Shown here: positions 2,171 to 60,071 of the stretch, piece by piece
Position numbering within the stretch: position 1 is the first letter of the stretch
How the letters are laid out: each line of letters begins with the position of its first letter
Assembly (NCBI GenBank): GCA_918797485.1
Contig: CAKKNE010000006.1
Coordinates: forward strand, 3,410,001 to 3,474,000
DNA from: Pelagomonas calceolata
Taxonomy: Eukaryota
Reading direction: 5' to 3'
DNA length: 64,000 bases
Made by a program: the position numbers and the translations under genes
Notes under the pieces: model-generated
The model's input: the letters and a program-made list of their open reading frames with translations, nothing else
What the model was told of the DNA's origin: nothing
Database searches by the model: none

Positions 2171-3140
2171 TCAGCACGTGCGGCACGTCTTCGGGCAGGC
2201 CTCGAGTGCTGTTCTCACTCCGTCCGTGTTCTTGGCCTTGCAGCGTTTGAGTTTGTGGGCGACGTAGGCGCAGGTGTTCGAGGCCTTCGTACCGTAGGAC
2301 CACGTCGGGTCGTCGGCGCACGATGCGGACGGCGCGTACGTCGGCGTGGGATGGTACGGCGTAGGCGTGGGGTGCGGCGTTGGCGATGGGGCCCGCGGCG
2401 CCGGTCCTGGGGTCGGTCCGGGCGTCGCCTCGGGGGCGGGTCGATGCGTGGGCTCGCGCGTCGGCGTAGGGGGCGCGCTACAGGTGCCGCACGTCAAGGG
2501 GCAGGCCTCGAGCGCGGTGCGGACGCCGTCCGTGTTCTTCGCCTTGCACCGTTTTAATTTTTGAGCGACGTACGCGCAGTCGTTCGGCGAGCACGAGCCG
2601 TAGCACCAGGTGGCGTCGTCGACGCACGACGTCGATGTACAGTCGACGCCCGGCCGGCGGGCGTCCTCGTCAATGGCCTGCGGTGCGCGCGCGGCCTCCG
2701 CCAGGCGGCGTCTCGATGGTAGCGTGGTCGCGACGAGGACCTCGGCGCAGGCGCAGGCGCAGGCGTCGGCCGCGGCCCAGCCGTCGTCGGATGCCGCGCG
2801 GCCTGTGGGGACACGAACCGGTGAGAGAGCAGACGCGGTCACGGAGATGATGATGAGCGCGCCGCCGGCGCGGGGCGCCGGAAGAATGATGAACACACCG
2901 CGCGCGGCAGAGCGCCGCCGCGTCGCGGGCCACTTCATTACAATCCGCGCCCTCGCTGGACGCCCAGGCGGCCTCGTCGCGACAGTCAGGTTCACTTCCG
3001 TCGGGCGGCCACGGAAAGACGGGCGCCACGACGCGCGCCGGCGGTCGGGGGCCTGCTGCCCCCCTGAGATTGTGGTGGCCTTCGCCGGCGCCTGCGCGCG
3101 CCGCGGGCGCGAGCAGGGCGAGCGCGAGCCGGACGCGCAT
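2171..3140 (-). CDS. Secreted Cys-rich repeat protein with a Pro/Thr linker (intron 2803-2908)
   Basis: Signal peptide MRVRLALALLA; two near-identical 'CxDDxTWxYG...CAYVA.KLKRCKAKNTDGVRTALEACPxTCxTC' modules; the intron joins ORFs 2670..3209 and 2171..3202 in phase 1. Confidence 0.7.
2795..2908 (-). mobile_element. Introner-like element (2803-2900) with perfect 8-bp TSD GCCGCGCG
   Basis: TSD copies at 2795-2802 and 2901-2908; ends CGGTGTG...CCCCACAG; GC donor at the start of the upstream TSD copy. Confidence 0.75.
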
Positions 3141-3860
3141 CTCCTGATGGGGGCGGGGTGGCGGGCAGGCTCGTTCGGCGGCGTTTGTAGCGCGCCCCTC
3201 AACTGCCAAGAAACTCAGTGTGGGCGGTTAACCGATGATTGCGGCGTTCACCGGCTCGGTTTTTTTATGGTTTGGGCGTCGCAGCCGTCGGGGCGTGCCT
3301 CGGCCTTCGTGGGACGGGTCGCCAGGGCTCCCGAGAGCTGTGGGCGGCGTCGCGGCGGCCGCGACTTTCGGTGGTGAGTGCGACTTTCGGCGTTTTTGTT
3401 TTTCGCGTGGCTGGGAGGGCTGTCTAGGCGTCTAGAGCCTACTGGCGGGGACGGGGAGTCCTGCGATTCGCGCGGTTCTGCACGCCGCGCAATGGCAGCC
3501 CGATTTGGGGCAATTGCTGCTTTGGCGTTGCTAGGACTCCCTCCCAGGTCTCCTACGCCTAGTGGCGGGCAAGGGGACCCGTGTTTGGGGCAGCCCCAAA
3601 TCGAGCAGCCGTTTTTGTGCAGACAAGCCGCCGCGGCCTTTGTGGCAGCGCAGCGCTCACCGAAGCTGTCCCCAGCCGCTCCGATCGCTTCGCACGTGCA
3701 CCCGTGCAGCGCATCGATCCGATCGGCCCTCGGCGCCGGCACCCGGTGAGCCGGCAGGGCTCCGCAGCAGCAGCTGCCAACTCGGCCAAGCGCCGCGCCG
3801 CCGCTAGCGCACCGCTAGCAGCGCGCAAACGACACAATTGCGCTCGCCGCCCACAACGCC

Positions 3861-5564
3861 ATGCCCGGGTCGGGACCGCGCGTCGACCCGAGCGCCTACG
3901 CCGCGACGCGGCAAGCGAACATCGCGCGCGCCGCGGAGCTGCGCGCCCAGCGTAGAGCTGAGAGCAACGGCGGCGATTCGTTGGATGCGCTGACCCAGGA
4001 CGCGCGGCCGGCGCGCAAACCGAGGAAGGAGGTTGCGCCCGGCTGGACGCAGCACACGTGCAAGAAGACCGGGAAAAGTTATTATCACCACGCGGCCACC
4101 GCAAAAACGACGTGGACGCGGCCGCCGGGGTGCTACGACGAGCGCGAGAACGTCCATCCTTCCCAGAATGACGTGCCTCTGCAGGAGGCGAACGGTAGAT
4201 CTAGAAGAAGGGACGACGACGTCAGGGCGAGTTCGTCGCAGATGAGCGAGAGCGAGTTCGAGAGCTGGCTGGAGGTTCTTAAAAGACGTACTCTCACTGG
4301 TTCGCAAGCTAGACGGGCGTCGTCGGCGTTGGCGCGCTACGGCGCCGCGGCGCTGGACGAGCCCCAGCTCGGACGGAGCGACTCGCTCCAGTCTCTGAAA
4401 AATTCATTGCGATCGAAGCGGGGCCAGACCTCGGAGACGCTGCGGACCAAGTCCGCCGCTGATATTGTTGATGATGAGCCTCAGGAGGAGCCCGTCCGTC
4501 GCGCGAAGACGGAGCAGAACAGGAGACCTCGAGGGAGGCCGGAGTGGAATTCCGACTTTGCGACGGACACTACCGCTGATGATGATCGTAGACGCGAGGA
4601 GGAGGAGGCCGAGCAGCAACGGGCGCTGGCGCAGCGCCGGCGAGCTGCCCCTAAACCTGTGGACGACCTGCCGGCGGGCTGGACGAAGCACGTCGACAAG
4701 CGCACGGGCGCGACCTTCTACCGGGACGAAGCCGCCGGCGAGTCGACGTGGACGAAGCCGACGCAGCCGGCGCGCGGCGCGGCGCCCCCTCCTCAGGAGG
4801 AGGCCTACGACGAGCCTCCTGCACAGAAAGGCTACGACGCCTCGGGCGCCGGCGCGCGCCACCGGACCATGTGGAAGCCCACCAACGACGAGGAGGAGGA
4901 CCAGGGCCGGTGGAGCCCGCCCGCCCGGGCGCAGCGCCAGGCGTCGCCCCAGAAGCGGTCGCCGGTCAAGCGCCAGGCGTCGCCGGGGCCCGCGGCTCGC
5001 ATGAGCCCCGGACCGGATAATGGCGGTGTGCCCGACGGCGCCGCGAACGCGCGGTTAGATGATGCTTGTACGACGTGCGGGCGGAAGATGGCCGGCACCG
5101 CTCTAGATCGCATGGAAAAAATTCACGGCCAGCGCTGCTGCCCGAAGTGCGCGCCGAAGAAAGCTCGCAAAACCTTCAACATGGCGGCCAAGCGCGCTGA
5201 CGGCTTCGACGGCGACGAGCGAAGGAAGGTCCTCGACGGGGCCAAGCAGGTCAAGCGCGAGCTGAAGCAGAAGAAGAACTCCTTCGGCGGCTCTGGCGTC
5301 AAGGAGGGCAAGTGGAAGGCCCAGTCGAATCAGTTAAGAGAGGCCATGGCGAACATGCGCGCGATCACCAAGGCGGAGAAGGAGGGAAAACCCTTGCCGC
5401 CGGCGATGCCGAGCGGGCCGGACATGTCTCTCATAGGCTGCCCGCACTGCGGCCGGCGCTTCAATCAAAAAGCGGCTGAAAGACACATCCCGAAGTGCCA
5501 GTCGATCAAAGCCAAGCCCAAGACTCTTACCAGAGGCTCCGGGCGCGGCCTCGGCCGGCGATAG
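3861..5564 (+). CDS. Protein with two WW domains and a C-terminal C2HC zinc finger (ZC2HC1/FAM164-like)
   Basis: 'PGWTQH...YYHH...TTWTRP', 'LPAGWTKH...FY...STWTKP', 'CPHCGRRFNQKAAERHIPKC'. Confidence 0.85.
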   Translation: MPGSGPRVDPSAYAATRQANIARAAELRAQRRAESNGGDSLDALTQDARPARKPRKEVAPGWTQHTCKKTGKSYYHHAATAKTTWTRPPGCYDERENVHPSQNDVPLQEANGRSRRRDDDVRASSSQMSESEFESWLEVLKRRTLTGSQARRASSALARYGAAALDEPQLGRSDSLQSLKNSLRSKRGQTSETLRTKSAADIVDDEPQEEPVRRAKTEQNRRPRGRPEWNSDFATDTTADDDRRREEEEAEQQRALAQRRRAAPKPVDDLPAGWTKHVDKRTGATFYRDEAAGESTWTKPTQPARGAAPPPQEEAYDEPPAQKGYDASGAGARHRTMWKPTNDEEEDQGRWSPPARAQRQASPQKRSPVKRQASPGPAARMSPGPDNGGVPDGAANARLDDACTTCGRKMAGTALDRMEKIHGQRCCPKCAPKKARKTFNMAAKRADGFDGDERRKVLDGAKQVKRELKQKKNSFGGSGVKEGKWKAQSNQLREAMANMRAITKAEKEGKPLPPAMPSGPDMSLIGCPHCGRRFNQKAAERHIPKCQSIKAKPKTLTRGSGRGLGRR

Positions 5565-59028: not shown

Positions 59029-59497
59029 GGTTTCGACCGCTGCTGCGTGCCTTTGTACGGCTGATGTGGTTAAAGACTGCTCGCGCTGGGCAGACCTTCA
59101 ATTGAGGCCGCCGCAGACCTTCAATTGTCCTCGCTGCAGCACTGAGGCCCCGCTACGTCAAAGTGCGCGCTGGGCCTCTAAGGCCTTCAGGACCCTCGTC
59201 GAGCGTCCCTGGACGCCTCGACGCATCAGGGGGCCCGGAAATGGAGTGCGGGTTTCGCGCTTAACATCTGGGACTCGGGCGCGCGCTGCCGCAAAACGCA
59301 AGCCCGCAGGGCGTGAGACGCAGTCGTTCATCGCAGAAAGTGCCCGCCGAGGCGTCCTCGCTGGCGCCGCAGCGAAAGAACGCGACGCAGAGGCAGAGGC
59401 CACAGCGCTCTCAGGAGGCGCCAAGCTCTCCGAAGCAAACGCGCGCGCTCCGGGCGTAACGCCACCGCCGCAGCGCGCGCAACGCCACCGCCGCGGC

Positions 59498-60071
59498 ATG
59501 GCCCGCTCCAAGACCACGCCCCGCATCGGCGGCGAGACCGGCGCTGGCACGCCAGCAAAAAAAAAGACGCCGACGAAGCGGAAGCAGCGGCTGCGACCGG
59601 GAGAGGCGGCGCTCAAGGAGATCCGCAAGTACCAGCGCTCTACCGATTTGCTGCTGCGGAAACTGCCCTTCGCTAGATTAGTACGGCAGGTCCAGCAGGG
59701 TCTGGCGCCGCACTGTGTGGAAATCAAATGTCGGGCGCCCCACGCCATCGACGCGATGTTGTCTCCGTAGCTGCGTCTGCTCGATGGCGTGGAGTTTCCA
59801 GGCCATCGACGCGACGTTGTTCCCGCGACCGCGTCGGCTCGATGGCGTGGAGGTTCAGGGCAATCTAACTCGCTGGTTGATTTCCACACAGGCGCCGCAC
59901 GACTTCCGCTGGCAAGCCGCGGCTTTGGTCGCGCTGCAGGAGGCCGCGGAGGCGCACCTCGTCGGGCTGTTCGAGGACGCGAACCTGTGTGCGATTCACG
60001 CCAAGCGCGTGACGATCATGGTCAAGGACATGCAGCTCGCGCGGCGCATCCGGGGCGTGCTGCGGGAGTAG
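59498..60071 (+). CDS. CENH3: Histone H3 variant, probably centromeric CENH3 (GC-AG intron 59705-59891)
   Basis: Divergent short tail '[14 protein letters not shown]'; 'KLPFARLVR' (A for the canonical Q) and 'FRWQ' (W for the canonical F). Confidence 0.8.
59705..59899 (+). mobile_element. Introner (59713-59891) with perfect 15-bp TIRs and perfect 8-bp TSD GCGCCGCA
   Basis: CTGTGTGGAAATCAA / TTGATTTCCACACAG; TSD copies at 59705-59712 and 59892-59899. Confidence 0.95.

Follow-up and report, generated by a model that had tools for sequence, protein, structure and literature searches.

Introns of a Pelagomonas calceolata contig as inserted terminal-inverted-repeat elements, and a possible lasting trace of their ends

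Where do introns come from whose first nucleotides recur at the start of the following exon? The question is raised by a stretch of 64,000 nucleotides of the pelagophyte Pelagomonas calceolata (assembly GCA_918797485.1, contig CAKKNE010000006.1, positions 3,410,001 to 3,474,000 of the forward strand; GC content 63%), hereafter the window, in which a preliminary description, made from the letters alone, had pointed out eight introns with related ends. All eight are present where it placed them, and each runs from GT or GC to AG on one strand (six on the minus and two on the plus strand). We conclude with high confidence that these introns are introners, that is, short non-coding elements with terminal inverted repeats (TIRs) that inserted into exons, and that a hAT-type transposase encoded elsewhere likely moved them. 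The donor GT or GC is provided by the upstream copy of an 8-bp target-site duplication (TSD), and the acceptor (..CACAG or CGCAG) by the end of the element. Since the donor lies in the duplicate and the acceptor in the element end, splicing removes one duplicate together with the element and restores the exon.

The introns are numbered E1 to E8 along the window. E1 (2803..2908, minus strand) is a 106-nt GC-AG intron formed by a 98-bp element in a gene with ShKT-like cysteine repeats. In an alpha/beta-hydrolase gene, an EF-hand is interrupted by E2 (9765..9864, minus; 100 nt, GT-AG); the next intron is E3 (16698..16755, minus; 58 nt, GC-AG). The gene for 6-phosphogluconate dehydrogenase (6PGD) carries E4 (18918..19062, minus; 145 nt, GT-AG), and a DUF7495 gene carries E5 (42789..42847, minus; 59 nt, GC-AG). 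E6 (48922..49219, plus; 298 nt) and E7 (55626..55845, minus; 220 nt) are GT-AG introns, and E8 (59705..59891, plus; 187 nt, GC-AG) lies in a histone H3-family gene. The window sequence bears out the element lengths of 50–290 bp that had been reported, the GC donor in four of the eight, and the start CGGTG in four (E1, E3, E4, and E5). The host gene of E8 (59498-60068, plus) has a divergent N-terminal tail, one extra residue in loop 1, and RW in place of RF; judged by known motifs, it is presumably CenH3-like.

Splicing is supported by RNA for five of the eight introns, by a protein match for two, and by the reading frame only for E2. The junction reads come from polyA RNA (three runs of one sample), and contigs of a second sample cover E6–E8. 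E5, E6, E7, and E8 were skipped exactly in 36, 7, 14, and 57 junction reads, respectively, and the splicing of E6, E7, and E8 is each backed by one contig besides the reads. E4 was skipped in one contig from an RNA run. Its excision gives a translation equal to P0001, a 483-aa P. calceolata protein to which exon 2 of the gene is 100% identical, and no extra residue is found at the 6PGD junction in comparison with 10 homologs. The spliced junction of E3 agrees with the homologs P0149, P0122, and P0156. At the E4 and E3 junctions, the insertion has left the protein unchanged. Excision of E1 gives the annotated P. calceolata protein P0167 exactly, and its retention gives P0124 exactly; excision of E2 links a stretch of 314 open codons to one of at least 400 and makes the EF-hand whole. 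The junctions of E1 and E2 themselves were absent among the RNA joints listed. At the E1 gene (2174-3227, minus), P0124, whose sources include a transcriptome set, keeps the element and P0167 lacks it, raising the possibility of intron retention.

The TSD identity, measured between the eight nucleotides that open the intron and the eight that open the exon after it, amounts to 8, 8, 6, 7, 6, 5, 3, and 8 of 8 for E1–E8. The range from 8/8 to 5/8 given in the preliminary description holds for seven elements and fails for E7, which scores 3/8 owing to a 2-nt deletion: its TIR begins 6 nt past the donor, and two nucleotides of the exonic 8-mer are missing from its intronic counterpart (3/8 when compared ungapped). 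A scan of the window for these ends combined with a TSD of at least 7/8 found 4 cases, where 100 dinucleotide shuffles gave 0.16 on average. The same scan gave 4 cases against 1.45 at 6/8 and 11 against 7.07 at 5/8, which are weak on their own. The TIR identity over 14 nt is 8, 13, 6, 8, 5, 10, 14, and 14 for E1–E8; the short TIRs of hAT elements are thus seen in E7 (14/14), E8 (14/14), and E2 (13/14). The tidy decay series that had been suggested was not observed, since TSD identity and TIR identity are uncorrelated (Spearman rho 0.06, n = 8). A monotonic decay was also rejected outside the window, where the rho between TSD identity and identity to the consensus is 0.02 (n = 104 listed copies, biased toward intact ends).

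If the elements are mobile, further copies should exist, as the preliminary description had anticipated. In two RNA runs, approximately 850 and 770 reads match the edge of the E2 repeat and then continue into unlike flanks (agreement approximately 0.5). These numbers far exceed the depth of the gene itself, indicating many transcribed copies elsewhere in the organism. In addition, metagenome contigs, whatever their hosts, were scanned for two intact 15-nt ends separated by 157–187 nt. At least 120 stretches (L001–L120) were found, and removal of one short-flanked and two duplicate loci left 117 listed sites, so that at least 117 unique copies exist in the metagenomes. The search pattern required the TIRs, and therefore these copies are no test of TIR presence. 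Exact 8-bp duplications flank 67 of the 117 sites; a further 25 match at 7/8, 12 at 5–6/8, and 13 at 3/8 or less. Lengths of 3–7 and 9–12 bp gave two or fewer exact duplications each, and shuffled pairs were never exact at 8 bp (0/2000). The 8-bp TSD of hAT elements is therefore observed. Apparent target duplications of 7, 7, and 5 bp were noticed at L023, L051, and L024, respectively.

The listed copies also bear on how the insertions become introns. The duplicate starts with GT or GC in at least one orientation at 113 of the 117 sites, compared with 31% of random 8-mers. Of the 72 unambiguous sites with enough flank, 68 code better on the strand with the donor than on the other once the element is excised. 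Positions 3–8 of the perfect duplicates are locus-specific, with all four bases occurring, which identifies them as target duplication and not splice consensus. GC donors account for 41 of the 104 oriented copies, and the elements lie in the two orientations in similar numbers (42 and 37 of 79). A transposase acting in trans would make staggered cuts of 8 bp at numerous sites, and only those insertions would survive selection whose duplicate starts with GT or GC on the coding strand. After insertion, the interior would undergo deletion and divergence, the duplicate would erode, and the donor would likely drift toward G at +5. The two-ended pattern and a 20-nt end pattern each had 0 matches in viral contigs, and no viral carrier is indicated there.

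Sub-families, as had been proposed, exist: clustering of the 117 copies at 85% identity gives three groups, with 78, 25, and 6 members, and 8 singletons. The three group consensuses are each 203 bp long, and their interiors are 33–44% identical without gaps. Exactly 203 bp was also the length of 54 of the 117 copies, within a searched range of 187–217 bp. The shared size despite divergent interiors suggests a length constraint. The view that the interiors are largely unrelated proved partly wrong. E7 is a full-length member of the largest group (89% over 193 nt), E2 is an internal-deletion derivative of the same group (84–86% at both ends), and E8 is a member of the smallest group (92% over 145 nt). 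E1 is a distant relative of E8 (71% over 56 nt), E3 and E7 have one end in common (92% over 26 nt), and E6 shares one end and contains many copies of the internal repeat of the introner family. This graded likeness to the group consensuses shows that copies of different ages exist.

The ends themselves suggest an order of changes. The start CGGTG had been interpreted as a loss from CTGTG, which is not supported. A metagenome copy with an E3-type end (L047:682-831) starts with CAGTG and ends in a CTG-type acceptor, and an allele of the E3 gene product (P0123) has Q where the window (16747) encodes R at the element start, which fits CAG in place of CGG. These two observations suggest that CAGTG is older and that CGGTG likely descends from it; CAG to CGG and CTG to CCG (the latter in L009 and L017) are both single transitions. 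The AG acceptor would have arisen when A changed to T at position 2; one end would have acquired it before the other, and the young families have it at both. With CTGTG at both ends, the youngest families can be spliced in either orientation, and older copies with CAGTG or CGGTG at one end would be spliced in one way only.

Much of this is already known. In the accessible part of Guerin et al. (10.1101/2021.10.25.465678; PMC9481584), 956 putative introners are reported for P. calceolata, with a length peak at approximately 210 nt, GT or GC donors, and TIRs, and supplementary file 8 of Gozashti et al. (PMC12130899) tabulates 11 introner families for the species. In that table, family 2 comprises 340 copies of a 202-bp element with a 13-nt TIR, the RepBase match hATv-2N1_EHux, the class hAT, 281 GT and 42 GC donors, and the remark "co-opt 5' carry 3'"; its automated TSD field is empty. 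The general mechanism of introners has also been described (10.1101/2022.06.06.494994, PMC9860276, and the review PMC11282704, as far as their accessible parts go). As these sources present them, the published introners agree with ours in species, introns of approximately 210 nt, element size (202–203 bp), GT or GC donors, AG acceptor, TIRs, co-opted donor, carried acceptor, and hAT label. The eight introns belong to this published class, and the finding as such is already known; beyond it, our analysis adds a clean measurement of the 8-bp TSD, a higher share of GC donors (41 of 104 listed copies, compared with 42 of 340 in the published family 2), and little more.

Related systems share parts of the architecture. 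The hAT miniature inverted-repeat transposable elements (MITEs) in the accessible part of PMC3014272 have an 8-bp TSD, TIRs of 14–15 bp, a non-autonomous nature, and internal-deletion derivatives, as do the elements here, but their ends follow the hAT terminal motif YARNG, whereas young copies here have CTGTG, the change that creates the AG acceptor. The introners of Micromonas pusilla (IE) are, according to the accessible part of the review PMC11282704, likewise MITE-like and spliced seamlessly via the TSD, but they have a 3-nt TSD, carry the donor, and co-opt the acceptor, a mirror of the arrangement here. The accessible literature on pelagophytes yielded nothing on the motif described below; Huff et al. 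2016 was outside that comparison. The introners of Aureococcus anophagefferens, another pelagophyte, resemble ours in architecture: Huff, Zilberman and Roy reportedly described them in 2016 as non-autonomous DNA transposons of approximately 210 nt in which one splice site belongs to the element and the other is contributed by the target duplication.

Seven extra introns in the window, placed by RNA (four), homologous proteins (two), or a Pfam split (one), raise the question of whether the introner class extends further. Two were placed by homologs: a 57-nt in-frame intron at 16820..16876 (minus; P0149), with CCGTGC at +9, a CGCAG end, and a TSD of 4/8, and a 286-nt intron in a light-harvesting gene at 22533..22818 (minus; P0171), with CAGCGT at +10 and 4/8. 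A 364-nt ferrochelatase intron at 34123..34486 (plus; CGGCGTCC at +9, TSD 2/8) was placed by the Pfam split at profile positions 132-134; its donor was first found by a motif scan, and the junction was checked afterwards. The others have junction reads. A 187-nt intron of a polyprenyl synthetase gene at 54774..54960 (plus) has CTGCGTCC at +9 and a TSD of 3/8 (391 reads), and a 58-nt GC-AG intron at 55945..56002 (minus) has CAGCGTCC at +9, the introner internal repeat, and a TSD of 2/8 (24 reads). One TCP-1/cpn60 gene contains both a 244-nt intron at 57851..58094 (minus; CAGCGTCC at +9, internal repeat, TSD 3/8; 17 reads) and a 142-nt intron at 58177..58318 (minus; CGGCGTCC at +10, TSD 4/8; 12 reads). 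A further 100-nt GC-AG intron at 48638..48737 (plus), with CAGCGC at +9 and an end resembling the family repeat, is predicted by a codon model; it has no junction among the RNA joints listed and was kept outside all statistics.

The duplicates of the extra introns are at chance level (13 of 42 positions, compared with 0.29 per site). Nevertheless, all seven contain CnGYGY at +9 (five) or +10 (two), which occurs at 2.3% of the GT/GC sites of the window, and all seven end in CGCAG. The longer form C[ATG]GCGTCC is present in five, and the internal repeat of the introner family in three. G at +5 is found in six of the seven, compared with 14 of the 67 listed perfect-duplicate copies (Fisher p = 0.001). 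When the original eight are included, a motif resembling the repeat end stands between +7 and +10 in all 15 supported introns, so that the earlier estimate of about half of the introns was too low. The sample, seven introns from one window, is small, and the motif was widened after some of the introns were known, so that its significance is exaggerated by nominal p-values of 1e-9 and below. Only the intron at 22533 tested the motif prospectively, and there it lies at +10. Blind intron prediction in 198 kb of metagenome flanks was too noisy; it had the motif at +9 in 6 of 40 predictions, compared with 0–3 at other offsets; at stricter cut-offs, the numbers were 3 of 19 and 0 of 4. In the listed loci plus the window, the form C[ATG]GCGTCC was preceded by GT or GC at a distance of 8 nt in 25 of 112 cases, no more often than at other offsets (15–32), and a scan of the listed loci for this form gave only three intron-like cases (TSD 5, 5, and 4 of 8). 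The signal in the extra introns is thus not confirmed outside the window. A scan for the branch-point motif YTRAY within 60 nt of the acceptor (4 of 15 introns) was uninformative.

Several observations weigh against an origin of the eight introns by hAT-type transposition. E4 and E5 share only their termini with the subfamilies found, the 13 listed sites with a TSD of 3/8 or less include some 5- or 7-bp duplications and perhaps some assembly chimeras, and the probable match to the published family 2 is one of length, TIR, mechanism, and species. A drift of the 5–7/8 duplicates toward the U1 consensus was not established (12 changes toward and 7 away, p = 0.36). An empty allele within the species was not seen; P0156 and P0122 (65%) cross two intron sites as one open reading frame (ORF) on contigs of up to 33.6 kb, a length from which their DNA origin is inferred, and a run under another organism label (X14) gave long pieces identical to the window, only chance joints at 90% likeness, and no empty alleles. 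Spread at the RNA level by reverse splicing, with the flank similarity reflecting splice-site consensus, would fit the observation that nearly every copy found is an exon insertion that can be spliced out. We regard it as highly improbable: the eight nucleotides are locus-specific and match only within their own site, the inverted repeats and the two orientations fit DNA transposition, and 67 locus-specific exact duplications among the 117 sites against 0 of 2000 shuffled pairs refute it. A second alternative accepts transposition and assigns it to a different 8-bp-duplicating DDE transposase; those of the P-element and Merlin types are such enzymes. The young ends CTGTG do not conform to YARNG, and no hAT transposase was found in the window, as the preliminary description had noted (no transposase Pfam family in 84 ORF stretches, 15 + 69, picked by coding score or length), nor PF05699, the hAT dimerization domain, among the annotation-table rows listed. 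In the published table (PMC12130899), as far as accessible, one other family of this species, which has a 9-nt call, is labeled Mariner, and most families are "Unknown". However, YARNG does fit one end of some older copies, and those only (CAGTG in L047; CAGCG at 55945 and 57851), and the same table classes the main family as hAT and lists a RepBase match for it (hATv-2N1_EHux), supporting the mobiliser that had been proposed from the 8-bp TSD. We therefore judge another transposase to be unlikely and the elements to be likely hAT-like, as far as their sequences tell.

How far the class extends is less certain. Only the young copies (E2, E7, E8, and perhaps E1, E3, and E6) may be introners, with E4, E5, and the seven extra introns being host introns whose CnGYGY and CGCAG are host splice signals that the transposon ends matched or mimicked. 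Acceptors of the CGCAG type occur commonly in GC-rich algae, and the duplication in the extra introns is at chance. In a relic under no selection, moreover, the +9 motif should disappear at the same pace as the duplicate, which leaves either a selected splice signal or an older host signal matched by the transposon. Against a host origin, the motif stands where an 8-bp duplicate would set the repeat end, three extra introns contain the internal repeat, the duplicates of E4 and E5 match at 7/8 and 6/8, and P0156, on its 33.6-kb contig, is intronless across the E3 and 16820 sites. We consider the host-signal explanation somewhat unlikely. The broader proposal, which we put forward tentatively as possible rather than probable, is that nearly all introns of the chromosome arms of P. 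calceolata, and not the catalogued 6–13%, arose in waves from one hAT-like MITE lineage. Older one-way elements, with a hAT-type CAG end at the donor and a mutated CTG end as the acceptor, would have been followed by symmetric two-way elements of 203 bp, and the end motif at +9/+10 would outlive the TSD as an extended donor signal adopted by the spliceosome. The published counts, in the parts accessible, are 956 (Guerin et al.) or approximately 475 (the sum over the 11 tabulated families) of approximately 7,500 introns (the product of 16,667 genes and 0.45), whereas 15 of 15 introns here show the end motif. The +9/+10 motif in the seven extra introns, which is partly post hoc, is the only unpublished lead that we found.

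Two other features of the window were noted. The stretches 6507-6537 and 60971-61012 are each matched by 100–285 reads per run that come from one other abundant transcript, and they are probably shared short repeats. At 12098-15008 (plus), two adjoining ORFs, both approximately 475 codons long and weakly matching SHOCT at the C terminus, are likely tandem duplicates.

If the motif observation held genome-wide, a single alga would document how one transposon lineage came to replace almost all of its introns, and each intron would keep a before-and-after record in its exonic and intronic duplicates. The share of introns that derive from transposons after sequence similarity has decayed could then be tested in one genome, as could the idea that transposon sequence becomes a signal for the spliceosome.

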